Shown here: positions 6,601 to 54,046 of the stretch, one piece after another | Numbering within the stretch: position 1 is the stretch's first letter | Layout of the letters: each line of letters begins with the position of its first letter | Virus record (IMG/VR): IMGVR_UViG_3300010965_000004 | Location: 44,708 to 108,707 of that record | Direction: 5' to 3' (one strand) | DNA length: 64,000 nucleotides | Origin: a virus | Lineage: Duplodnaviria; Heunggongvirae; Uroviricota; Caudoviricetes | Notes under the pieces: model-generated | What the model was told of the DNA's origin: nothing | The model's database searches: none | The model's input: the letters and a program-made list of their open reading frames with translations, nothing else | Translations under genes and position numbers: made by a program

Positions 6601-9600
6601 ATCCTCACAGTTCTAACAGTCTTTTCATTTGAAGTATCTACTATTTCAAAAGTACCTTCGCCTAGATCCTTGACTCCGTATTTACCGCTGGTTATGTTAT
6701 CAAACTCAACGGTACTAAGACCAAGAACACTCTTCACAGGATTTTCGAAAACTGGGTTTACAACAGGTTCAGCTAACTTATAATGACTCCACTTATCACC
6801 ACGTAAGCCCCCTGTTATAACCTGGTCAAATAACCCACCATCTTCTGGCTCAAGGTTTTTAGCATTAAGCATTGAAGGTTCTTTTAGTTCCCCGTTGCTT
6901 TGATCAAGAATATCATGATCGGTTAAAGGTATGGCTGTAATGTTGTCTCTATCAATTTTAACATTAACCCCTGAACCTCTCAGGTAATCAAGAAACTTTT
7001 TCGTAGCAAAAGTAGTTTTGGGTTTAGGTAAAGGTTCCCCTCTAATAAACTTAGACCAGTACTCGTCATTCTGCTCGGATTTAACGGTACCAATCTCTTT
7101 TAGATTCTTACGGGCATCGGAACCAAGAAGTCCCAACATTTCCATATATCCAACAGATTTGGAACCTTCTTCACCGCCTTTGGTTGGCTGCATAACATTA
7201 TCGTAGCCCCCAACGTTTCTAGCTGAGTAGTTCTGGTCTGTAGTCTTGTATAGTTTGATAATATACTGTGGCCCATTAAAAATCTGGCCGAATGAATGGC
7301 CGGTCTTAGGGTCAACAAGTTCATTAGTATCGCTTAGACCATGCTTAGCTAACTCATCCTTCAAATTCTGAATGTTATTTCCAGACTCGAAGTTCTTCAC
7401 CTCATAGACCTTGCCAGTTTTCTGTGCAATCTTACCAGCGACAGTTTCCATGATCTGTCCAAGGTTGATACGAGAAGTAACAGAGGCAGGATTAAGAACC
7501 AAGTCAACAGCCTTGCCAGTTTCCTTGTTGGTAGGCATTTCATGATCTTCAAGGATCAAGGAAACAATACCCTTGTTACCGTGAAGGCCAGTTAGCTTAT
7601 CTCCAACTTCCAGGGCCTTTACACTTCTAAGAAGAATTCTGACTGACTTGCTTTCTGTGTGAGAATCAACAACTTCTCCATTCTCTTCGTGATTCCAAGG
7701 CTCAATAATAAGACGATAAGGATTAACTAGGCTCTTATGTAAACGACCAAGCAATCTATCTTCGGGAGTAGGTTCACGCTTTTCAAGAATAGCAACAACC
7801 GGATCATTATAATTCATGATCATTCCAACTTTGGCGTACCCCTGGTCATCAAGTTTTTCTAATTGATCAGGTGTAAACTTACCAGGAAAGTATCTCTTTA
7901 AAAGAGACTTACGGGCAACTGTGTTTGGGTTAACTTCATAGTCAATCTTATAGGCATGGTGAGAACTTAAGCTATCGGCAGCAGTTCTGGAGATAACGAT
8001 TCCGTCTTCATGGTTGTAGCCTTTATAAGGCATATAGGCCGCAGTAAGGTTTTTGCCTAAGGCTAGACTTCCCCCCTTAGTGTAGTTGTTCTCAAAAAGA
8101 GGTTGATTTTCATGAACTTTATCCCCAACTTTAACTAAAGGAATTTCATCATCATGAAACCCTTTCATGTTAAAGGGTAGATTCTTTACCGCTACCACTT
8201 TATGGATAACTCCGCTATCTCCTTGAATTTGAATTTCTTTGTTACTCACTTTCAGAACAACTCCATTTTCAGGAGAAGCAGTGGCCAATACTTCATTTAA
8301 CTTTTTAACGAAAGGTCGCCCTTTACTATCCAAAGTCTGAACCAAAGGGGCTTCTCTTTCAACTAAGGAAAGCGCTTGCGGAATAGCCTTACCAGCCATA
8401 GTTAAACGGCCAGGGTGATTTGAATTAAGGAAAGGAACTAGATTAGTTGTAACTGTATATAGATCGGTAGCATCATTTAGCCAGTAATCTACTTTGGCCT
8501 TGGGAACACGTTTCATTTCTCCATGATCTTGCGCTTCAATCATACCAGTTTTGTTCTTCTGGTCAGGAAAGCCAATACAAGAATTCATTACTTCAGTTAC
8601 AGAGATGTGTTTAACTTTGCCAGCTTTATCAATAACCTTAGCATATAAGTGACCCTCTTCGTCTCTAGCCGAAGAAATAGTAAAACGCTGATCGATACCT
8701 GCATGTCCTGACTCAGGGGTTCTAGAAGGGTCAAGGATTCCTAAATGGGAAGGGTCAATATTACGTGCAGCCATAGGCACACCACGTTCATCCCCAATAC
8801 CGCCTTCAGCTGGTCCTAAGATTGTACACTTACCTACATTTTCCAGACTTTCGATAGGATTTGTTTCAGATGGGGTTGAGATAAGTGAACTAGCTTGTAT
8901 ATATGCAGAGTAAACTTTATTAAAGGGTTTGGATGGAACTGCATCGGTAATTCTTGGTTTGTTTTGGTCAATCTTTTCCAGACCAAAAGTTAGCTTGTTC
9001 TTAACTCTACGAACCGTTTCGTGTTCCTTGGCAAAACGAGTACGAAGGAAGTCAGGTAGATTCTGAACTCTCTTAAACTGTAAGGAGTCACGATTGTCTT
9101 CCTGTCTTTCACCTTTGTGTACTTGAACCAAATTACGAAGGGTGTAAAGAATAGCTTCTTTAGTAACACCTGTAAAGGATTTTCCTAAAGTAGCTTGTGT
9201 GGTTTCTGCGCTTAGCTGAGACTGTTCAAGGGAAGTACGAAGTTCGGACGACATAAGTTCTAGACTTGGGTTTTCATTTTTGCTGTAAACCATTCTAGAA
9301 TATAGATTGCGAACTGTCTTTTCTTCCTTACCTGCTGTATAAGCGATGTTGGCATCCCAAACATCAGCTGGAATGTACTTCTCAGCTTCAGACTTTGTTA
9401 CTCCAAAGACATGAGTTAATAGTGGTCCTACAGGAGTGTGAGAGCTACCAACCTCTAGGAAGAAAACTTTGGTTTTTGGGTCCAGTACAATACGGAAGCT
9501 TGCACCTTTGGCTGTATTAAAGTGAGCTTCGAGTTCATTTGTATTTTCTCGTAAACGGGTATAAACCCCAGGTAATAGTTGTAGTTGATTTGAGACATTA

Positions 9601-9935
9601 TAATTATTTCCCTTCAAAAGTAAAGTATGCTTCGTGGTAAGGTAAAAGGAGTCCATGAGAGGAAAATCTTTAACATGGTCTACCACCTTACCAGTAGTTT
9701 TAGAGATGAGGGTCAAGTCTCCTTTAATAGGATAGGTTAATGACTTCGATTTAAGAATAGCTTCTTTTTCGTCAATATGAGTAAAAGGTTTAGGGTGAGC
9801 TTTAATGTTGTCTATAGATAATGTATAAAATTTTCCTTCTATTGGGAATGATTTGGCCAAACTTTCCACCAAAGCTTTATCCGCTCTTTCGTTAATAGCC
9901 TTGGGAGACGAATAAATAGGGGTTAATTTTGTCAT
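6597..9935 (-). CDS. rpoB: RNA polymerase beta subunit
   Basis: 1112 aa; LHGNKGIVS...VDLVLNPASVTSRINLGQIMET matches beta RHGNKGVIS...[21 protein letters not shown]. Confidence 0.8.
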   Translation of the reverse strand: MTKLTPIYSSPKAINERADKALVESLAKSFPIEGKFYTLSIDNIKAHPKPFTHIDEKEAILKSKSLTYPIKGDLTLISKTTGKVVDHVKDFPLMDSFYLTTKHTLLLKGNNYNVSNQLQLLPGVYTRLRENTNELEAHFNTAKGASFRIVLDPKTKVFFLEVGSSHTPVGPLLTHVFGVTKSEAEKYIPADVWDANIAYTAGKEEKTVRNLYSRMVYSKNENPSLELMSSELRTSLEQSQLSAETTQATLGKSFTGVTKEAILYTLRNLVQVHKGERQEDNRDSLQFKRVQNLPDFLRTRFAKEHETVRRVKNKLTFGLEKIDQNKPRITDAVPSKPFNKVYSAYIQASSLISTPSETNPIESLENVGKCTILGPAEGGIGDERGVPMAARNIDPSHLGILDPSRTPESGHAGIDQRFTISSARDEEGHLYAKVIDKAGKVKHISVTEVMNSCIGFPDQKNKTGMIEAQDHGEMKRVPKAKVDYWLNDATDLYTVTTNLVPFLNSNHPGRLTMAGKAIPQALSLVEREAPLVQTLDSKGRPFVKKLNEVLATASPENGVVLKVSNKEIQIQGDSGVIHKVVAVKNLPFNMKGFHDDEIPLVKVGDKVHENQPLFENNYTKGGSLALGKNLTAAYMPYKGYNHEDGIVISRTAADSLSSHHAYKIDYEVNPNTVARKSLLKRYFPGKFTPDQLEKLDDQGYAKVGMIMNYNDPVVAILEKREPTPEDRLLGRLHKSLVNPYRLIIEPWNHEENGEVVDSHTESKSVRILLRSVKALEVGDKLTGLHGNKGIVSLILEDHEMPTNKETGKAVDLVLNPASVTSRINLGQIMETVAGKIAQKTGKVYEVKNFESGNNIQNLKDELAKHGLSDTNELVDPKTGHSFGQIFNGPQYIIKLYKTTDQNYSARNVGGYDNVMQPTKGGEEGSKSVGYMEMLGLLGSDARKNLKEIGTVKSEQNDEYWSKFIRGEPLPKPKTTFATKKFLDYLRGSGVNVKIDRDNITAIPLTDHDILDQSNGELKEPSMLNAKNLEPEDGGLFDQVITGGLRGDKWSHYKLAEPVVNPVFENPVKSVLGLSTVEFDNITSGKYGVKDLGEGTFEIVDTSNEKTVRTVRI

Positions 9936-10778: not shown

Positions 10779-12589
10779 TTAGGTGCTCCTTGATCCTTTG
10801 GTTTTGCTGGCTTCTCTGATTTACTAGGTGCTTGTCCAGATTGACCTTGTCCTCCTGGTTGCCCCGGTTGTCCAGGTTGCCCAGCAGAGCCACCTTGTCC
10901 TGGCTCCTTGACAGGTTTACCATCTGGGCCAATTTCTGGTTGGGCAGAAGCTGCTGTCTCATCCAGAATCTTAGCTGCCAGCAAATAGATAGTATAGTTT
11001 TCAGTCTTAAGCTGGTTAAGCATACTCATTCGTGTCATTTCATCAGCAGGATAAATCTGTTCAGCAACTGCTTGAGCTTGCAACATAATTTCTTTATAAC
11101 CGTCGTTTCCTTCCATTTGTTGTCCGAGGTCCTTAGCAGCAACAAAGTGAGCTTGATCATTTTCGTATTGAGTTTCAATTGCCACTCTTGTTCTTGTAAC
11201 AGACTCTTCCTTGATTTTTTCCTGTTCTTGATTGAAGTCAAGACCAATTTCTTCAAACAGAGTAGTTTGAGAAGCCAATCCACCTTGAGCCAATTGCGAC
11301 AACAGAACCTTGAAATTATCATCGTCAAGTAACTTAAATGGAACCAGACCAACATCAATCTTTTCCAGAGTTAAGTAGGCAGCAACCTTATCCACTACCC
11401 ATTCAATTAAATCAGTTAATCTACCGATATAAGAAGTAAGTAGATTCTCCATCATCCTTAGACCAATACTACTACTGGTCCAATTTGTGGTTCCACTTAA
11501 CAACTCCATTGAAACCCCAAGGGATAACAAAATACTTTGTTCAGCTTGTTGAATTTCTTGGGCAACTAAAAGGTTCTTCCCTTCTCCTCCAATCGGAGTA
11601 TACCCAACTGGAGTCGGGGCAATAAGTATGTGATTCTTATCTCTCTTATGTAAAAGAAGAGCCTGTTCCATGTTGGTCTTAAAAGTACGAAGACTCATAG
11701 CAATAACAGGATCAGAGTTTCCAGTTTGAGCCTGTGGGAAAATAACACGTAAAGGGTTTAAATATTCCGTAGCAATAGCTTCATTAGCCTTACGCAAAGT
11801 AGCTTGATAGAAAACCAAGGAGAACAAGGAAAGAAGTGGGGGAATAGCAATTCCCTCAACGGAACCTCCAGAGGAGATATTCTTTAAATGGAATAAGCTA
11901 CCCTTATCAAATTTAAAGTCCTGGTTGTGTCTAACGGCTTCAACAAATTCCCAAGGAATTGAATCTACAAATAATCTATCTCCCTTTTGAATCTTCAGCT
12001 TTACAGAGTTAGGAATCTTGTAATAAAACTCGCTCTCTCCAGTAATAGGGTTATGGCTAACTGCTATATGTTCCGGGTTCCACTTGATGAAGTTCATATC
12101 CTCAATAGCTAACGACTTAGTATCTCTTCGTTTAAAGATACCTGTGAAATTACAGTGTGGGCATGAGCCACTAAACTGGTATTGTTTAAAAACTAACCAC
12201 GGAGCTTTTTTTACATTATATACAGCTTTGCACATAGGACATTCAATTTCTCTATGAATAGGGAAGTAGATTGAAACAAAGACATTACCTAAGGTAAAGA
12301 AATCGAAGCCAGCATCCTGTAAAGCCTCTTTGAGCTTGAACGATTTTACAATTTCCTTGTAACGTTTCTTTGTTCCTTCTTGTTCTGTATTGAATGTGAA
12401 TTCGGTAATAGGATAGGTCGCCAACTTTCTGATAACTTCAGAAGTAGTAGGAGACTGTATAGTAATATACCTAGCCCAACGAATAACATCGTGTAAGTTT
12501 CTTGGTACGAATTGATTAGCGACAGTGAACCAAGGGTTAGTTTGTTGCCCACCTTGACCCTGTTGGAACGGTAAATTTGGAATGTCCAT
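10775..12589 (-). CDS. hypothetical protein with zinc ribbon and Gln/Pro/Gly-rich C-terminal tail
   Basis: 604 aa; CPMCK...CPHCN ribbon; tail GQPGQPGQPGGQGQSGQ; first gene of the minus-strand RNAP operon. Confidence 0.45.
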   Translation of the reverse strand: MDIPNLPFQQGQGGQQTNPWFTVANQFVPRNLHDVIRWARYITIQSPTTSEVIRKLATYPITEFTFNTEQEGTKKRYKEIVKSFKLKEALQDAGFDFFTLGNVFVSIYFPIHREIECPMCKAVYNVKKAPWLVFKQYQFSGSCPHCNFTGIFKRRDTKSLAIEDMNFIKWNPEHIAVSHNPITGESEFYYKIPNSVKLKIQKGDRLFVDSIPWEFVEAVRHNQDFKFDKGSLFHLKNISSGGSVEGIAIPPLLSLFSLVFYQATLRKANEAIATEYLNPLRVIFPQAQTGNSDPVIAMSLRTFKTNMEQALLLHKRDKNHILIAPTPVGYTPIGGEGKNLLVAQEIQQAEQSILLSLGVSMELLSGTTNWTSSSIGLRMMENLLTSYIGRLTDLIEWVVDKVAAYLTLEKIDVGLVPFKLLDDDNFKVLLSQLAQGGLASQTTLFEEIGLDFNQEQEKIKEESVTRTRVAIETQYENDQAHFVAAKDLGQQMEGNDGYKEIMLQAQAVAEQIYPADEMTRMSMLNQLKTENYTIYLLAAKILDETAASAQPEIGPDGKPVKEPGQGGSAGQPGQPGQPGGQGQSGQAPSKSEKPAKPKDQGAPK

Positions 12590-21236: not shown

Positions 21237-21950
21237 ATGATTAAAAGCATCTCTGATCTTTCTTTAGATGAGATTACCTGGTTCACTGCAAAGATTGATG
21301 GGTTTACTTGGGCTAGAAACGGCTCAAAGAGAAGTGGTGATTCCTATAAACAAAAAGGGGAAAAGTCGGATTGGGAACTGGGTACTCGAGCTTTTATATG
21401 TAGATCCAAAGCTAAAGACTTGGATAAGAACATAAAGAACTGGGATGGCTGGTTCAGATCTGATCTTACAGAACCACTAGCAAAGGCTGCCTATTATGAC
21501 GTTCCTAAATATGTTACTTCTTGGGTAGATAGTGGTCCTCTTCTCGAGCAAGCTATGTTACGTGGTATGTTGATAGAGTCTATTGACTGGGACAGATACG
21601 ATAATTTACCTCGTTTCAAGGCATCATACAGTAAATGGGAAAATTGTTATCGTGGTAATACCTTTCTTGAAGCAGGGCTTCGTTGTTATATTGCATCCGT
21701 CTATGGGGAGGAACTCAGTGTTGACCAGTTTTATGATGCTCCACAAGTTCCGGTGTTTATAAAGATCGTCAAGACTTGCACGGGGAATAAGTTTCCATAC
21801 GGAAACCTCGGAAAAGAGAATGATGAGTTTGTAACTCAATTCCTTGGCTCAATTTTTCCGGCAGTTAGATCAAATATGAATTACTACAAGTTACCTAATG
21901 GTATGCTTGTTCATGTCTATAACTCTTTCGAGGTCAAAGTACCAAAATGA
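21237..21950 (+). CDS. hypothetical protein
   Basis: 237-aa ORF, ATGA-coupled to rnlA. Confidence 0.4.
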   Translation: MIKSISDLSLDEITWFTAKIDGFTWARNGSKRSGDSYKQKGEKSDWELGTRAFICRSKAKDLDKNIKNWDGWFRSDLTEPLAKAAYYDVPKYVTSWVDSGPLLEQAMLRGMLIESIDWDRYDNLPRFKASYSKWENCYRGNTFLEAGLRCYIASVYGEELSVDQFYDAPQVPVFIKIVKTCTGNKFPYGNLGKENDEFVTQFLGSIFPAVRSNMNYYKLPNGMLVHVYNSFEVKVPK

Positions 21951-23101
21951 AAATCAATAGCACACTTAAGCTTTATGAAAACCTGATGGATCTCTGTAAG
22001 ACAAGTGAGACTTTTTACTTTTCTGACCAAGGCCCGTACCGAGTTTTCAATTATCGTCTTGCTTCGTACTCAGACTGGCTTTTGTCTGATGCTTTGGAAG
22101 CTAGAGGGATAATGTATTATCTAGAAGACGGTAAAGAGCCTAAGCTTATTTGTCGCCCTTTCAAGAAGTTTTTCAACAGGGATGAAAATCCTTTGACGAT
22201 GAACTTGGATCTCTCCAGAGTGGTTAAGGCAGCTATCAAAGAGGATGGGTCTTTAATCACTTCTTTTATTGAACCTTATACTGGTAAGCTTAGAGTTAAG
22301 TCAAAGCAAAGCTTAACATCCGAGCAGGCGGTAATGGCTCAGGCTTTCCTGGATAGTCCAGAAAATCTTCGTTTAAAACTTGAGGTAGAAGACCTTACTG
22401 GGCCTGGCTATAAAACTGTAATGATGGAACTGGTTTCCCCGGCCAATCGTATTGTTTTAGAATACCCTAAAACCGAACTTAGGGTAATTGGGATACGAGA
22501 TACGGAAACAGGGGAGTTACTAGAACGAGACCAATTAGATCCGGTAGGTTTTAAAGAAGTTAGAAATCGTTGGGTATTCGAACAACATGGTTTCTTACAA
22601 AATCCTCCCGGAGGAAGTGCAGCTTTTGTTGAATCCGTAGCTGCTCAAGCAGGTATTGAAGGTTATGTCTTTACCCTTGAAGATGGAACAATGTTTAAGG
22701 AAAAGACCAACTGGTACAAGTCCTTGCATCACCTTAAAGACTCAGTAAGCTGCGAACGTTACTTATTCGACGCTATTATTGATGAAACAGTAGATGATGT
22801 TAAAACCATGTTCCGAACCGACGAGTTTACCATGAAGCGTATTACTGATATGGAAAACTTGGTTATTCCTAAGTTCAATTCTTTGATTAAGACTGTGGAG
22901 GATTTTTATGCTGCTCATGTTTTACTCGAAAGAAAAGAATACGCGATACTTGGTCAAAAAGAATTGGGTAACCTTTTCAATTTGGCAATGGGAAAATACA
23001 CGGGTAAAGGACTTAATTATAAGGACTTTGCTAAAAAGTACCGGAAAGAAGTTTTTGGTATCGGAGAGAAAGTTTATAACGAAGAAAATGGAGAAGATTG
23101 A
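21947..23101 (+). CDS. rnlA: RNA ligase 1 (T4 RnlA-like)
   Basis: 384 aa; LMDLCK, ASYSDWLLSDALEARGIMY, KFFNRDENPLTMNLDL, adenylylation motif KEDGSL, NRIVLEY - collinear with T4 Rnl1. Confidence 0.85.
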   Translation: MKINSTLKLYENLMDLCKTSETFYFSDQGPYRVFNYRLASYSDWLLSDALEARGIMYYLEDGKEPKLICRPFKKFFNRDENPLTMNLDLSRVVKAAIKEDGSLITSFIEPYTGKLRVKSKQSLTSEQAVMAQAFLDSPENLRLKLEVEDLTGPGYKTVMMELVSPANRIVLEYPKTELRVIGIRDTETGELLERDQLDPVGFKEVRNRWVFEQHGFLQNPPGGSAAFVESVAAQAGIEGYVFTLEDGTMFKEKTNWYKSLHHLKDSVSCERYLFDAIIDETVDDVKTMFRTDEFTMKRITDMENLVIPKFNSLIKTVEDFYAAHVLLERKEYAILGQKELGNLFNLAMGKYTGKGLNYKDFAKKYRKEVFGIGEKVYNEENGED

Positions 23102-28744: not shown

Positions 28745-29866
28745 ATGGAACGAAAACTCGTTACAGTAAGAACTGTTTCAGAGCTTGTGCCTATTGAGGG
28801 AGCCGATTTTATTGAAATCGCTAAAATCGATGGGTGGCAATGCGTAGTAAAGAAAGGTGAATTTGCAGTAGGAGAGAAAGGACTTTACTTTGAGATTGAC
28901 TCTTTTCTTCCTGAAGAGGATGAACGATTCAAATTCTTGGAAAAGAACTTTACCAACTATAAAAATAGGCGGGGCGCTCGTATTCGTACTATTAAGTTAA
29001 AGGGGCAACTTTCACAAGGATTGTTGCTTCCCTTAGAGGACTTCCCAGGTTTAATTCAGAAAAATTGGGGAGGAGTATTTGATGATAAGGATTATTCTGA
29101 ACAACTCAAGGTTACTAAGTGGGAACCACCAGAGGCTAATACCGGTGGTAACAACAAATTAACTTGGCTGGGAAGAAAAACCAAGAAGCTTAAATACACC
29201 TGGCTTAAGCCTTTCTTTAACTGGTTAGAGATTAGGTATCCTAACATATTTGCCAGGGGTGGATCCAGGAAGTTCCCTGACTATATACCTAAGACTGACG
29301 AAGAGCGAATTCAGAATCTAATCAATAAGTTAGATCGTACTTTTGATGAATTTTATGAAGCTACTGTTAAGCTAGATGGTTCCTCAATGACTGTTTACCA
29401 TAATCGTGGTAAAACTGGGGTTTGTTCCAGAAACTTTGAATTAGTTAAGGACCCAGAAAACAAGTATTGGGCAACCGCTTTAAAGTATAACATTCCCGAT
29501 GAGATTAAGAAACTGGGTATGAATATTGCAATTCAAGGTGAACTAATGGGCCCTGGTATTCAGGGGAATAAAGAGGGTTTAAAGACGTATGACTTCTTTG
29601 TTTATAAAATCTGGGATATTGACGCTCACGCTTACTTAAGTAATGTAAGACGGGATATAACCTGTGCTAATCTTGGATTAAAACAAGTACCTAGCCTTGG
29701 GTACCATCAGCTGAAAGAATTTCCGGATATTAATGCATTCTTAGCGTTCTCTGAGGGACCCTCACTTTGTTCTGAAATGAGAGAGGGAGTTGTATTCTCT
29801 AAGCTAGATTGCACTCATAGTTTCAAAGTGGTTTCTAATAGTTTTCTACTTAAATATAAGGAATGA
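28745..29866 (+). CDS. ATP-dependent RNA/DNA ligase (Rnl2/Rnl5-like nucleotidyltransferase)
   Basis: 373 aa; motif I ATVKLDGSS, motif IV EGVVFSKLD, IAIQGELMGPG; N-terminal extra domain. Confidence 0.6.
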   Translation: MERKLVTVRTVSELVPIEGADFIEIAKIDGWQCVVKKGEFAVGEKGLYFEIDSFLPEEDERFKFLEKNFTNYKNRRGARIRTIKLKGQLSQGLLLPLEDFPGLIQKNWGGVFDDKDYSEQLKVTKWEPPEANTGGNNKLTWLGRKTKKLKYTWLKPFFNWLEIRYPNIFARGGSRKFPDYIPKTDEERIQNLINKLDRTFDEFYEATVKLDGSSMTVYHNRGKTGVCSRNFELVKDPENKYWATALKYNIPDEIKKLGMNIAIQGELMGPGIQGNKEGLKTYDFFVYKIWDIDAHAYLSNVRRDITCANLGLKQVPSLGYHQLKEFPDINAFLAFSEGPSLCSEMREGVVFSKLDCTHSFKVVSNSFLLKYKE

Positions 29867-31185: not shown

Positions 31186-31270
31186 ATCCTTTGGGTCTTC
31201 AAAAAATGATCGTAAACCTTTCCAAGGAAAGGTCTGTTGGACGCGGGTTCGACTCCCGCCAGCTCCACCA
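31186..31270 (+). ncRNA. ssrA: tmRNA acceptor piece (3' tRNA-like half: T-arm + 3' acceptor strand + CCA)
   Basis: GGACGCGGGTTCGACTCCCGCCAGCTCCACCA near-identical to the E. coli tmRNA 3' end; lies upstream of the GGGGCUG 5' end, so the gene is permuted. Confidence 0.6.
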
Positions 31271-31353
31271 AAAAAACCTAGATTGGCTTAGTTGGCTAAA
31301 GCTAATTTTCTAAACTACGTGTAAGTCGTAGTGCCTGTTAGGGTTTTTCTGAT

Positions 31354-31640
31354 GGGGCTGTACCTGGTTTCGACAGCGGATTGATGTACGAAGAGTAGGC
31401 GATCCGAGGGGCATTCCTCGTAAAAATAGCAAATGCAATAAATGCCGCTAATGATAGCAGCTTCGCCCAGGTCCGCCTCGCGGCCTGATAGGTGAATGGG
31501 GTAGCCACTCTAATATCCAATAGCATAGGTATACTATGCGTTGGTGTGTTAGCCTTATTAACCAAAGGTGGCAACAATTCTACTCTGTATCTGCCGAGGG
31601 GAACCGTTCAACGAACAATAAATCTTCGTTGTTACCAAGT
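31354..31640 (+). ncRNA. ssrA: tmRNA coding piece (5' acceptor strand GGGGCUG, tag reading frame, pseudoknot region); 3' boundary approximate
   Basis: GGGGCTGTACCTGGTTTCGAC...; CTCGTAAAAATAGCAAAT then GCA AAT GCA ATA AAT GCC GCT AAT GAT AGC AGC TTC GCC CAG GTC CGC CTC GCG GCC TGA = ANAINAANDSSFAQVRLAA*; G3:U70 with acceptor piece. Confidence 0.55.
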
Positions 31641-31949
31641 CGGCGGCGTCATAACCAGGAACTAGCAATCCTGTACGCCATAGGTTGTCACGGCAATAGC
31701 TGTTGCAGAGGGAAAAACGTAACCCCTTTTTCATGCCTAAAAAGGTTTTAGATAGGGACTTCACGAAAAGTCGGGGCCAAACCAAAGGACCTACAACTAT
31801 TGAGGGCTGGAACTCCCTTTCTTAGGAAAACGTCGCTTACGTCCAGGTAAGAGGAGGAAATGTTTTTAACCTTCGCTCTTAGCAAATCCTCACCTGATTA
31901 TAGTGTAGTACCTATCTAAAACCTTTTCTCAATGCCCTAGTTGCTAAAC

Positions 31950-31972
31950 TGGTATAAGCAATGTTTATGAGC
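31950..31972 (+). promoter_or_regulatory. conserved phage promoter
   Basis: TGGTATAAGCAATGTTTATGAG; structured leader before GTG 32079. Confidence 0.4.
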
Positions 31973-32078
31973 ACTCAAGCAAAGGTCGACTGCTGCTTGA
32001 GGATCTCGGGATGTTTGCCGACGGGCATGGAGGTTCGATTCCTCTCTAGGGCAGCCTAACAATCACAGGAGAAAAAAT

Positions 32079-35163: not shown

Positions 35164-35338
35164 TCCAACCCCTGACTGTGGCCACGGTCTTGGCAAGGAA
35201 ATCTTGAAAGGATTAAACGTGTACAGACTAGAGTGTTGCACCAGGCTACTAGTTCCAAGAGCCTGCCAAAAAGGAACACCCGGCAGTTGACCAGCGTCAT
35301 GAACTGGGATATACTATTAGGGTTGAAAAAAGAAAGTT

Positions 35339-35373
35339 GCCCGAGTGGGGAAATTGGTAAACCCAGCGGACTT
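35339..35373 (+). tRNA. tRNA-Leu(UAA) 5' exon (acceptor, D-arm, anticodon stem 5' strand through U34)
   Basis: GCCCGAG-T-G-GGG-AAATTGGTAAA-CCC-A-GCGGA-CTT; pairs with 3' exon at 36110-36159. Confidence 0.7.
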
Positions 35374-36109
35374 TACTTCTTTTGTAAATTTTATGTTAAA
35401 ATATGTGTATACCTAAAAGGAACACATATGGAAAGTTTAATTTGCAAAGAATGCGGTGATCAAAGAGAATCTGGTAGACGTTTATGTAAAAAATGTAATT
35501 CACGGAGGATAAATTCCTATCCAAGATACACTTGGACAAAAGAATGTCCTGCTTGCAAAAATGAATTTCAAGCTTGGAGAAAACATCAGTTATTATGTGT
35601 GGGTTGTTATAGATTATCCGACGAACTAAGGTCGAAATCTTTAAGCACAAATAATTATGTCTATCTGAAGCAGCCCGGAAGAACCGAACATAGATTTATT
35701 GCAGAAACTGTACTGGGACGTAGCTTACAAACTAATGAGCTAGTTCATCATATTGATGATAACCCAAAAAACAATGATGTAATAAATTTACTGATTTTGG
35801 ATAGAAGGGCACATGGTCGGTTACATAGGTATCTTGATCAGCAAAGAGTCATATTGGAGAAATCCAATAGTGAGAATTTCGAGAATTGCTGGAAAGCCCT
35901 TATAGCTCCTATGACTACAACATGGTTGGAAACGACGGGTGTGAAAGTTATAAAACTATGGGAGATTGGGTAATCAGCAGCCGAGCCTCTAAAGTGAAAA
36001 CAATGGGGAAGGTTCAGAGACTATGCACGAAATACCTGACCATTTAGTTGAAGGTAATGATATAGTCCAGACTACAACAGAAATGGCTAATGAAAATTAG
36101 AGTAGTAGG
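35374..36109 (+). mobile_element. group I intron in anticodon loop of tRNA-Leu(UAA) (between U34 and A35)
   Basis: exons assemble into a perfect type II tRNA; intron 3' core GTTCAGAGACTATG (R-like) and AATGATATAGTCC (S/P7), terminal G. Confidence 0.7.
35428..35973 (+). CDS. HNH homing endonuclease (intron-encoded)
   Basis: 181 aa; N-terminal Cys clusters; ELVHHIDDNPKNNDVINLLILDRRAHGRLH HNH motif. Confidence 0.65.
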   Translation: MESLICKECGDQRESGRRLCKKCNSRRINSYPRYTWTKECPACKNEFQAWRKHQLLCVGCYRLSDELRSKSLSTNNYVYLKQPGRTEHRFIAETVLGRSLQTNELVHHIDDNPKNNDVINLLILDRRAHGRLHRYLDQQRVILEKSNSENFENCWKALIAPMTTTWLETTGVKVIKLWEIG

Positions 36110-36159
36110 AAAATCCGCCGCCTTTTGGCTTACCGGTTCGATTCCGGTCTCGGGCACCA
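36110..36159 (+). tRNA. tRNA-Leu(UAA) 3' exon
   Basis: AAAA-TCCGC-var arm-ACCGGTTCGATTCCGGT-CTCGGGC-A-CCA; TCCGC pairs with GCGGA, CTCGGGC with GCCCGAG. Confidence 0.7.
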
Positions 36160-36203
36160 ATAACCAAAGGAACTCACAGTTCTTTTTTTCCTTAGGAAAG
36201 TAA

Positions 36204-44298: not shown

Positions 44299-44757
44299 AT
44301 GATATATTGCCCAGGATGTAAATTAGAAAAAGAAAGAATAGAATTTCATAATAATAAAAGTCGTCCTAATGGGTTATCTTGTTATTGTAAACTCTGTACC
44401 AGCATAAATAATAGACAGAGAAGAGGTTTACCGGAATCTTCTATTAGACAACGAAGTGCTTTTATTAAATGGAAATATGGTATTTCACAAGAAGAATACT
44501 TAAAATTATTAAAAGCCCAAGATTTCAAATGTGCTATTTGTAAAACTCCACATGAAGAGGTTAGGAGACCAGGTAATCTAAAGCATGATGGGGTTTCATA
44601 TGGTCTTTGTATAGATCATAATCACATAACCAATAAAGTTAGAGGGCTTCTTTGCAATCAATGTAATAGAGCCCTCAGGTTGTTTAAAGATAATTTAGAA
44701 TTTCTTCAAAATGCTATAGAATACCTAAATACTACAGGAGAAAGAGATGCATCATAA
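44299..44757 (+). CDS. HNH endonuclease, T4 endonuclease VII-like
   Basis: 152 aa; CIDHNHITNKVRGLLCNQCNRALRLF matches the endo VII DHDH..GxVRGLLCxxCN motif. Confidence 0.6.
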   Translation: MIYCPGCKLEKERIEFHNNKSRPNGLSCYCKLCTSINNRQRRGLPESSIRQRSAFIKWKYGISQEEYLKLLKAQDFKCAICKTPHEEVRRPGNLKHDGVSYGLCIDHNHITNKVRGLLCNQCNRALRLFKDNLEFLQNAIEYLNTTGERDAS

Positions 44758-47476: not shown

Positions 47477-47545
47477 ACTTAAATAGCTAATTGGTTAAGC
47501 GCAACTAACGTTGAGTAATAGGTTCGAATCCTATATTAGGTATAG
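47477..47545 (+). other. tRNA-derived fragment (D-arm-like + T-arm, no anticodon arm)
   Basis: TAGCTAATTGGTTAAGC D-arm-like, ATAGGTTCGAATCCTAT T-arm, ATTAGGT 3' strand; middle folds only as CAAC-TAAC-GTTG. Confidence 0.25.
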
Positions 47546-52666: not shown

Positions 52667-52764
52667 CAGATTGGTCCCTGGTTCAATCCCAGGCAAGCCC
52701 GCAAAAAGTCTTGGCAATAGCTAGGGTTTTTCGTGGGCTTGTAGCTCAGTGGTAGAGCAATTTG
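52667..52764 (+). ncRNA. tRNA-like gene 'Y' in permuted order: 3' half (anticodon 3' strand, T-arm, 3' acceptor) upstream of 5' half (acceptor, D-arm, anticodon 5' strand)
   Basis: CAGAT-TGGTC-CCTGGTTCAATCCCAGG-CAAGCCC then 33 nt then GGGCTTG-TA-GCTCAGTGGTAGAGC-A-ATTTG; acceptor 7/7 plus extra AAAAA/TTTTT pairing. Confidence 0.4.
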
Positions 52765-52810
52765 TTCACTTGTCCCCGAAGAGTTGTCTATCTAAAAACG
52801 AGGAATGCGA

Positions 52811-53023
52811 AAACTCATAAACCTGCTGGTTCGAGTCCAGCCTTCCCCACAAAGAGCCCCGCCGCCGCAGTACCCAACATCTTAGCGTTCGACCCCGGTC
52901 TATAAGACACTCCTCCAAGAGGATACCTTCGGGCTACGAGCTAAGTAACTTGAGTTTCGCCTGCGGCTGGGTTCTTTGTGGGGAAGTAGACAAATTGGTA
53001 AAGTCAACTATTATTGAAATAGT
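52811..53023 (+). ncRNA. tRNA-like gene 'X' in permuted order with 14-bp extended acceptor helix and ~120-nt structured intervening loop
   Basis: GCTGG-TTCGAGT-CCAGC-CTTCCCCACAAAGA ...120 nt... TCTTTGTGGGGAAG-TA-GAC-AAATTGGTAAA-GTC-A-ACTAT-TATTGAA-ATAGT; perfect 14-bp pairing; inner GCCGCAG/CTGCGGC helix. Confidence 0.4.
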
Positions 53024-53956: not shown

Positions 53957-54046
53957 GCGGGTGTGGCAGAGCCTGGTTTATTGCACCTGCCTTCCAAGCA
54001 GGAGGTGTTAACTCATCCACGAGTTCGAATCTCGTCACCCGCTCCA
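53957..54046 (+). tRNA. type II tRNA with anticodon loop CTTCCAA (anticodon UCC by position); identity uncertain, Sec/Ser-like architecture
   Basis: GCGGGTG/CACCCGC acceptor, 3-4 bp D-stem with long loop, CCTGC-CTTCCAA-GCAGG, 16-nt variable arm, ACGAGTTCGAATCTCGT, U73 + CCA; loop differs by one base from tRNA-Sec CTTCAAA. Confidence 0.45.

Follow-up and report, generated by a model that had tools for sequence, protein, structure and literature searches.

Group I introns are removed by a two-step mechanism that is initiated by guanosine, and introns of this kind that interrupt tRNA-Leu(UAA) genes between anticodon positions 34 and 35 have been known since 1990. The intron of Anabaena is about 250 nucleotides (nt) long and contains no open reading frame (ORF). 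A tRNA-Leu(UAA) intron of group I with more than 500 nt that encodes an HNH-family enzyme was reported from Bacteroidota in 2026 (PMC13011429), and the Synechocystis tRNA-fMet intron with I-Ssp6803I is another group I intron of an anticodon loop that is associated with a homing endonuclease aimed at a tRNA gene (PMC3984707, PMC13011429). According to a 2014 review, every phage intron then known was located in a protein-coding gene, despite the many tRNA genes of phages (PMC3984707), and the 2026 survey of tRNA introns was restricted to bacteria (PMC13011429). Beyond these two sources, no report of group I introns in phage tRNA genes was found in the literature, and tRNA introns were unmentioned in the papers on phage Atu_ph07, on huge phages, and on jumbo phages, the first two of which used tRNAscan-SE. 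Here, a stretch of 64,000 nt (hereafter the window) from a virus of the class Caudoviricetes was analyzed (IMG/VR record IMGVR_UViG_3300010965_000004, positions 44,708 to 108,707). Its only tRNA-Leu(UAA) gene very probably contains a mobile, self-splicing group I intron that also carries an HNH endonuclease gene. The mechanism and the kind of intron are already known; the phage tRNA context is undocumented.

A preliminary description, made from the sequence alone, had proposed a split tRNA-Leu(UAA) gene at positions 35339-36159, with an insertion between positions 34 and 35 and with exons that join into a type II tRNA-Leu with a long variable arm and an encoded CCA. These proposals were all borne out. 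With introns allowed, ARAGORN recovered a single tRNA over exactly 35339-36159 with an intron of 736 nt, and it identified the joined exons as a tRNA-Leu(taa) of 85 nt. When the joined 85-mer was compared with deposited phages, bases 1-85 were aligned (100% coverage, 82% identity, E = 2e-15), and the matched tRNA-Leu genes, which are annotated and uninterrupted, came from PA5oct-like and phiKZ-like phages. The exon junction is therefore correct and independently fixed, because the 85-mer aligned over its full length with genes that contain no intron. The 5′ exon ended in ...GGACUU (in its longer form ...GCGGACUU) and the 3′ exon started with AAAAUCC (longer form AAAAUCCGC); the spliced product is expected to contain ...GCGGACUU joined directly to AAAAUCCGC..., and the corresponding junction of an intron-less tRNA-Leu(UAA) consists of GCGGACTT followed by AAAATCCGC. 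Together, the two exons can build an anticodon stem of 5 base pairs (bp; GCGGA with UCCGC). Both default ARAGORN and the Rfam tRNA model missed the split gene when they were run on the window, in which they found 22 other tRNAs and a transfer-messenger RNA (tmRNA).

The sequence between the exons contained a group I ribozyme core, as had been anticipated. In the proposed Infernal-type search, positions 35823-36090 matched the Rfam family Intron_gpI (RF00028) with 74.5 bits, above the gathering score of 50 (E = 4.4e-17). The two core elements noted earlier were assigned to J6/7 plus the 5′ strand of P7 (GTTCAGAGACTATG) and to J8/7 plus the 3′ strand of P7 (AATGATATAGTCC). Furthermore, U35373 closes the 5′ exon and G36109 closes the intron, as had been read, and this terminal G followed by AAAATC was kept in more than 80 related loci. 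A model of helices P2-P9 was built by hand and scored on an alignment of 21 relatives. Standard pairs were found in 94.7% of the cells, compared with 29-40% when the 3′ partners were slid by 1-3 columns; this measure is favored by the partial derivation of the model from the window sequence, whereas the counts of compensatory pairs are free of that bias. Compensatory changes were observed at 42 of the 70 pairs, and none of 500 shuffles reached the observed values. All core helices from P3 to P8 were intact in the window sequence, including the pseudoknot of P3 and P7, and P7 contained a bulged A. G36019-C36067 is predicted to be the guanosine-binding pair by its likeness to G264-C311 of Tetrahymena, which we take to be its counterpart.

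In related introns, a short conserved block that is located directly 5′ of P2 varies with the target exon. In the window, this block contained GAGUC at 35846-35850, at a distance of 472 nt from the 5′ splice site; GAGUC pairs with GACUU at the end of the 5′ exon and places U35373 opposite G35846 in the canonical U-1•G wobble. Introns that split tRNA(UAA) at 34/35 combined an exon end of ...GACUU with the guide GAG(U/C)C, those that split it at 33/34 combined ...GACU with GGUC, and those in a DnaK-like gene combined ...GGGAUU with GGUCCC, so that the guide sequence covaried with the exon over three different insertion sites. The endonuclease gene is thus located in the loop of P1, because the guide sequence lies 472 nt from the 5′ splice site. 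Two other versions of P1, UUUAC/GUAAA (35384-35388) and ACUUU/AAAGU (35432-35436), were rejected, since both place A rather than G opposite U-1 and the family alignment puts the guide 5′ of P2. The placement of P1 by Rfam (35827-35850) was likewise rejected as an artefact of a forced hairpin with many non-canonical pairs, the true 5′ strand being 472 nt upstream. No P10 complement next to the guide sequence was found in the 3′ exon. Since a P10 is thereby precluded, the anticodon stem presumably keeps the exons in register, a requirement that Zaug et al. reportedly showed by experiment in 1993 for the Anabaena pre-tRNA-Leu intron (work listed in PMC3984707).

The ORF at 35428-35973, which had been taken for an HNH homing endonuclease, proved to be a real member of this group, as it matched both the Pfam family HNH_3 (PF13392; 29.0 bits, cut-off 24.8) and several HNH families of PHROG (best E = 1e-13). 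Six homologues (38-53% identity) had two CxxC pairs and an HH...N...N...H...H motif in common; H107, H108, N116, N120, H129, and H133 were invariant among them, and the zinc-ribbon cysteines were conserved. The tail of the homologues was strikingly conserved (...QRVILEKS..ENCW..LI.P.TT.WLE...VKV.KL.EIG) and results from translating the RNA elements that run from the guide sequence through P2, P3, J3/4, P4, and P5 to P5a-c. The ORF of the window overlapped the ribozyme by 129 nt, which comprise the last 43 codons, and the stop codon (35971-35973) was located in the 3′ strand of P5. In four other loci (L003, L006, L136, and L147; L-numbers are locus labels within this analysis), the ORF extended to 4-14 nt short of P7. 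The ORF is hence not a separate insert, but fills the P1 loop and reads on into the ribozyme helices. Conservation by codon position, calculated as mean pairwise identity, was 0.74/0.74/0.70 for positions 1/2/3 in the overlap with the ribozyme and 0.50/0.58/0.43 upstream of it. The tail is constrained by the RNA and not by the protein, because its third codon positions were as conserved as the first and second; upstream, the greater variation of third positions is what a translated gene would show.

A ribosome-binding site (AAGGA, 35415-35419) preceded the ORF and was enclosed, together with the first base of the AUG start codon, by a hairpin (AUAUGUGU...ACACAUAU) with an outer stem formed by 35380-35390 and 35438-35448 (minimum free energy -18.6 kcal/mol, z = -3.2 relative to shuffles). 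This hairpin would probably keep translation low and thereby let splicing proceed. The intron endonucleases of phage T4 are under translational repression, and the hairpin at the ribosome-binding site recalls that arrangement. At near-identical exons, the intron of L006 (754 nt) included the endonuclease gene, and those of L133, L141, and L163 (323-333 nt) lacked it but kept its last codons as a 3′ remnant of the ORF, a distribution that fits a cycle of endonuclease gain and loss. Moreover, the same P1 loop contained a second, unrelated HNH ORF in L001 and L004, which also ended within P2.

By its architecture and by segment identity, rather than by subgroup covariance models, the window ribozyme is judged to be a mosaic of a phage-type P4-P6 domain and an IC3-like 3′ domain. 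The P4-P6 domain (35882-36013) was 78% identical over 111 nt to an intron of Staphylococcus phage DW2 and 73% identical over 113 nt to the nrdE intron of Staphylococcus phage Twort, and gave no alignment with the compact tRNA-Leu introns of phages that are described below as subfamily A. On the other hand, the 3′ segment (36057-36109; P7′-P9.0-P9) was 75-82% identical to the IC3-like tRNA-Leu introns of Atu_ph07, LR756501, and L005, and gave no alignment with the DW2 and Twort nrdE introns. The P5a-c extension was absent from 37 IC3-like phage tRNA introns, and the J6/7-P7-J7/3 signature of the window intron was GUUCAGAGACUAUGCACG and not the IC3-type GUGUAGAGACUAGACGG. The comparison with subgroup IC3 that the preliminary description had put forward consequently stands for the insertion site and the 3′ domain, and fails for the P4-P6 domain, which has P5a-c and is phage-like (73-78%). 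Introns of the Twort nrdE/DW2 type are traditionally labeled IA2, and BLAST matches to Twort- and SPO1-like phage introns would suggest the same class for the window core. This assignment was rejected, as only P4-P6 is common to them, P7.1/P7.2 are lacking, and the 3′ domain resembles that of IC3 introns. P8 (36034-36055) directly follows the 3′ strand of P3 (36028-36033) and leaves no space for P7.1/P7.2, the helices by which subgroup IA is said to have been defined by Michel and Westhof in 1990; the gap between P7 and P7′ was only 37 nt. For Bacillus phage introns, too, 5′ and 3′ parts that match different subgroups have been reported, and the authors argue that the subgroup scheme of 1990 fits phage introns poorly (PMC11878797).

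A scan of IMG/VR for the 3′-end motif yielded at least 120 stretches, which together with six further loci gave 126 tabulated loci. About 85 of these continued with AAAATC(C/T), the 3′ exon of a tRNA with a UAA anticodon; most of the others continued with the 3′ halves of tRNA-Met/Ile2(CAU), tRNA-Arg(UCU), or tRNA-Leu(CAA), and a few continued into protein-coding sequence. According to simple pattern scans, more than 100 IMG/VR contigs carry unannotated tRNA introns. The earlier remark on the rarity of group I introns in phage tRNA genes is thus true of the published record and false for sequence data; such introns are unreported rather than rare. In deposited phage genomes, tRNA introns were scarce by BLAST, in contrast to their plenty in viral metagenomes, and a megablast of the window locus against deposited phages gave no match.

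The introns of subfamily A were compact, with lengths of 190-280 nt, had no ORF in most cases, and were similar to the IC3 introns of Azoarcus and Anabaena throughout, a likeness that was judged against sequences that we take to be theirs (CAAAUUCGGUGAA..., GCCGAGCCAAGC..., and GAAGGUGUAGAGACUAGACGG). This subfamily included the cultured Agrobacterium jumbo phage Atu_ph07 (MF403008), with an unannotated tRNA-Leu(UAA) gene and an intron of 278 nt, and the uncultured 735-kb phage LR756501, with an unannotated tRNA-Leu(UAA) gene and an intron of 205 nt. LR756503 was identical to LR756501 at this locus, and LR756511 probably also carries such a tRNA intron. The gene of Atu_ph07 is located on the minus strand at about 112890-113250 of MF403008 (L127, 1241-1602), and that of LR756501 at 1321-1611 of L128. 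A coding sequence for a "hypothetical protein" has been called over the 3′ part of the intron-bearing gene of Atu_ph07, and the published count of 33 tRNAs for this phage (tRNAscan-SE) probably omits that gene. Ten IMG/VR loci (L023, L024, L030, L037, L048, L053, L066, L083, L086, and L102) contained class I tRNAs, with a short variable arm and the anticodon UAA, that were split at 34/35 by IC3-like introns. As bacterial tRNA-Leu belongs to class II, these phage tRNAs are of ambiguous amino-acid identity. One viral contig (L144) contained a tRNA-Leu(UAA) with a 747-nt intron beside a tRNA-Thr(UGU) with a 671-nt intron (8870-9703 and 10973-11718). An intron with an IC3-like 3′ domain was also observed in the crAss-like Kolpuevirus "frurule" (L129; OQ198718, about 76482-76539), where it splits the replicative helicase gene and carries a GIY endonuclease, and in the capsid gene of Pelagibacter phage HTVC120P (MH598807, 19651-19807). 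Since the same 3′ domain occurs in protein-gene introns of cultured phages, the tRNA-type core also exists outside tRNA genes.

Subfamily B, to which the window intron belongs, was recognized by GGUUCAGAGACUAUGCACG together with the P5a-c extension. It was found in 33 IMG/VR contigs, but of 185,579 species-representative genomes only 7 contained it; no cyanobacterium was among the 7, and at least one of them was a phage-like tRNA array binned into a metagenome-assembled genome (MAG). Its insertion sites were tRNA(UAA) at 34/35, tRNA(UAA) at 33/34, and DnaK-like and polymerase-like genes. Spot checks of L003 and L006 revealed phage-type genes; other IMG/VR contigs may include some host flanks. 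At three loci in MAGs of Bdellovibrionales and Halobacteriovoraceae (L161, L165, and L166), subfamily B introns ended directly upstream of ...GAGACGCGCTGGACTCAAAATCCAG; their insertion point appears to be the D-arm region of a tRNA-Leu(CAA) and not the anticodon loop.

To judge from its sequence, the locus contains all elements for two transesterifications, with the guide in the right register. The gene would be transcribed as a precursor of 821 nt, in which the ribozyme core (35845-36109) would fold into P2-P9. The guide AGAGUC (35845-35850) would reach back 472 nt and pair with GACUU and the first intron base, so that U35373 lies opposite G35846. Free guanosine bound at the P7 site would then attack after U35373; subsequently, G36109 would take the same P7 site and the freed 5′ exon would attack after G36109, joining U34 to A35 and producing the 85-nt tRNA-Leu(UAA). 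The HNH enzyme would cut intron-less tRNA-Leu(UAA) alleles of co-infecting phages, and the intron would be copied into the cut allele by break repair. Because the last 43 codons of the ORF overlie the guide, P2, P3, P4, and P5a-c, a translating ribosome must unfold the ribozyme; speculatively, translation of the ORF through P1′-P5 and folding of the ribozyme are mutually exclusive.

Some points weigh against a mobile and self-splicing intron. Splicing, exon ligation, and endonuclease activity are all deduced from sequence. P1 must form over 472 nt, which may slow folding or need help; in the relatives, support was poor for the first P3 pair and the outer P5 pair, and the tetraloop receptors in P8 and P5 were only loosely like the canonical 11-nt motif. 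A sequence search with the endonuclease against solved structures detected no relative at E values up to 1, and its DNA target is therefore not predictable; in addition, no close relative of the phage was found, and a search of IMG/VR for relatives of the downstream gene, which might have revealed a sister phage with an empty site, gave none. The long span of P1 would suit an intron that no longer splices and a tRNA-Leu(UAA) gene that is a dead pseudogene, and translation of the core-overlapping ORF could block folding as well. Such decay is nevertheless very improbable, as every core helix is intact, the splice-site features (U•G wobble and terminal G) and the bulged A of P7 are in place, and ARAGORN reads the exons as an intact 85-nt tRNA-Leu, which has 82% identity to working phage genes. 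The gene is also the only UAA-anticodon tRNA-Leu in an array of 22 tRNAs, and numerous relatives of the same architecture show compensatory change, which implies selection on structure. Another explanation accepts the ribozyme as real and regards the ORF as no longer an active homing endonuclease, either decaying or serving another role, such as helping the RNA fold. Endonuclease-less and frameshifted versions in L133, L141, L163, and L143, a Pfam score barely over the threshold, the lack of a relative among solved structures, and a tail of 43 residues dictated by the RNA all agree with this explanation, which deserves consideration but is unlikely: the ORF is of full length and has a good AAGGA ribosome-binding site, its zinc-ribbon Cys and HNH His/Asn residues are conserved in six homologues at 38-53% identity, and upstream of the overlap third codon positions vary most, which is the pattern of a translated gene.

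The origin of the intron offers a further alternative, namely that it descends directly from the ancient tRNA-Leu(UAA) IC3 intron of cyanobacteria and plastids and was taken by the phage from a host tRNA gene, a relationship at which the preliminary description had hinted. The insertion site at 34/35 is the same, GAAA tetraloops on P2 and P9 and a P9.0 are present as in the Azoarcus and Anabaena introns, and the 3′ domain shares 75-82% identity with the IC3-like introns of Atu_ph07, LR756501, and L005; the window also contains a permuted tmRNA, a form known from cyanobacteria and alphaproteobacteria. However, a direct descent is improbable in view of the P5a-c extension, which is missing from the aligned IC3-like tRNA-Leu introns, of a P4-P6 domain that is 73-78% like protein-gene introns of Staphylococcus phages, and of the J6/7-P7 signature GUUCAGAGACUAUGCACG in place of GUGUAGAGACUAGACGG. 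The distribution of the subfamily (33 IMG/VR contigs versus 7 of 185,579 species genomes, 0 of them cyanobacterial) and its members in DnaK-like and polymerase-like genes argue in the same direction. The mosaic, phage-borne intron that is mobile and self-splicing is thus the interpretation that we adopt.

Table 1. Coordinates of the split tRNA-Leu(UAA) gene, its intron, and adjacent candidate signals in the window.
Feature	Position	Strand	Remarks
Candidate sigma-70-like promoter	35287..35315	+	TTGACC-17-TATACT; about 24 nt upstream of tRNA; tentative
tRNA-Leu(UAA) 5′ exon	35339..35373	+	35 nt; acceptor strand, D arm, anticodon-stem 5′ strand, C32 U33 U34 at end
Group I intron	35374..36109	+	736 nt; ARAGORN intron mode, Rfam RF00028, covariation model
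L1 (P1 loop)	35374..35844	+	471-nt insertion; holds endonuclease codons 1-139; from guide-sequence position
Hairpin at ribosome-binding site	35401..35428	+	encloses AAGGA Shine-Dalgarno and first start-codon base
HNH homing-endonuclease ORF	35428..35973	+	181 aa; two CxxC pairs, HH..N..N..H..H motif; tail encoded by ribozyme core
Internal guide sequence, P1 3′ strand	35845..35850	+	AGAGUC; pairs with exon GACUU (35369-35373) and intron U35374
P2 hairpin	35852..35869	+	7 bp, GAAA tetraloop (35859-35862); 7/7 pairs compensatory, 97.9% cells paired
P3 5′ strand	35876..35881	+	AUUUCG; partner 36028-36033; 5/6 pairs compensatory
P4 5′ strand	35887..35892	+	UGCUGG; partner 35974-35979; 100% cells paired
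P5	35896-35899 with 35968-35971	+	covariation model
P5a/b/c extension	35906-35964	+	three-part; GAAA-capped P5c 35925-35936; backed by covariation
P6	35980-35982 with 36011-36013	+	covariation model
P6a	35986-36008	+	covariation model
P7 5′ strand	36017..36024	+	GAGACUAU; bulged A36018; helix invariant, 97.3% cells paired
P3 3′ strand	36028..36033	+	CGAAAU; P8 directly after
P8 hairpin	36034..36055	+	3/4 pairs compensatory
P7 3′ strand	36062..36068	+	AUAGUCC; covariation model
P9.0	36071-36075 with 36102-36106	+	5 bp; encloses P9
P9	36087-36100	+	GAAA tetraloop 36092-36095
Terminal guanosine (omega-G)	36109	+	3′ splice site directly after
tRNA-Leu(UAA) 3′ exon	36110..36159	+	50 nt; A35 A36, anticodon-stem 3′ strand, long variable arm, T arm, acceptor strand, encoded CCA
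Weak terminator-like hairpin	36170..36189	+	GAACU-CAC-AGUUC then U7; right after tRNA; read from sequence; tentative

The candidate promoter matched 10 of 12 consensus positions; such sites were no more numerous in the region than in shuffled sequence, and only its position makes it suggestive. The hairpin after the tRNA did not reach the G+C content required by the scan. The gene content of the window was phage-like and included a portal protein, ribonucleotide reductase, helicases, two RNA ligases, and the 22 tRNAs, as well as split RNA-polymerase beta-like subunits that were about 54% identical to those of Salmonella phage Arash and Vibrio phages D181 and D69. Just upstream of the tRNA array (31208-31488, plus strand) lay a tmRNA gene of the permuted, two-piece type (Rfam RF04321, 116 bits), for which ARAGORN gave the tag peptide AANDSSFAQVRLAA. 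The intron mode of this program also returned a "tRNA-Ser with 683-nt intron" over 31276-32052, which is probably spurious. On the plus strand, a 115-nt match to the Rfam tRNA model (52735-52849, 36 bits), with about 40 nt apparently inserted at the anticodon region, was not called by ARAGORN; a weak tRNA match of 66 nt (37.6 bits) was present at 47477-47542, and a 90-nt "tRNA-Gly(UCC)" at 53957-54046 combined a Gly anticodon with the long variable arm of a class II body. The RNA ligase genes near the tRNA array (21947-23101 and 28745-29866, both plus strand) belonged to PHROG 562 (T4 gp63-like, E = 6e-95) and PHROG 968 (E = 8e-90), and may form a tRNA repair kit against host anticodon nucleases.

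We offer one tentative reading as a possibility only: phage tRNA genes would be a large and overlooked reservoir of group I introns, in which a recombinant lineage retargets itself by changing its guide and uses the overprinted ORF as a switch. The introns would have been overlooked because annotation of the tRNAscan type skips them. If this is true, the lineage joined a phage-type P4-P6 to the P9 domain of tRNA-type IC3 introns, and moves among tRNA anticodon loops (34/35 and 33/34), the tRNA D-arm, and protein genes by guide change alone. Its endonuclease gene would have grown over P1′ to P6, providing a built-in switch that times homing versus the supply of tRNA-Leu during infection. Phage tRNA counts, and arguments on codon usage, miss intron-split genes, and short ORFs are mis-called over them. 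A mosaic ribozyme with an overprinted ORF (P1′-P5) furthermore represents a compact natural case of intron retargeting and of competition between translation and RNA folding.

Comparison with known systems indicates where this intron resembles and where it departs from each of them. The Twort nrdE intron is also phage-borne, has a P4-P6 domain with P5a-c like that of the window intron, and carries an HNH ORF; however, this ORF is located in the P6 region and not in the P1 loop. Both DW2 and Twort introns differ from the window intron in that they reside in protein-coding genes and have unrelated 3′ ends, and their P7-P7′ stretch of about 90 nt or more, compared with 37 nt in the window, fits the presence of P7.1/P7.2, which the window intron lacks. 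The Synechocystis I-Ssp6803I system involves another tRNA, a different site (33/34), and a PD-(D/E)XK enzyme, and is bacterial rather than phage-borne. The Bacteroidota intron shares the tRNA and an HNH enzyme with the window intron and differs by its location on a bacterial chromosome; PF01844 was named for the Patescibacteria tRNA-Asn enzymes only, and no Pfam family was given for the Bacteroidota enzyme (PMC13011429). The window enzyme matches PF13392, and its likeness to the Bacteroidota enzyme is one of description. The IC3-like tRNA-Leu(UAA) introns of phages (Atu_ph07, LR756501, and dozens of IMG/VR contigs) occupy the same site, share the guide logic (UGAGU or GAGUC), and are 75-82% identical in the 3′ domain. 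In contrast to the window intron, they are compact (190-280 nt), have no ORF, and are Azoarcus-like throughout. Finally, the Anabaena-type tRNA-Leu intron has the same host gene and the same U34/A35 insertion point as the window intron. Both have a U at position -1, a terminal G, GNRA-capped P2 and P9, no usable P10, exon alignment via the anticodon stem, and a similar P7′-P9.0-P9 layout. The window intron is distinguished from the Anabaena type by its P5a-c extension of about 60 nt, a different J6/7-P7 signature, its endonuclease gene, and its phage-borne location, within a subfamily that is almost absent from bacterial genomes.

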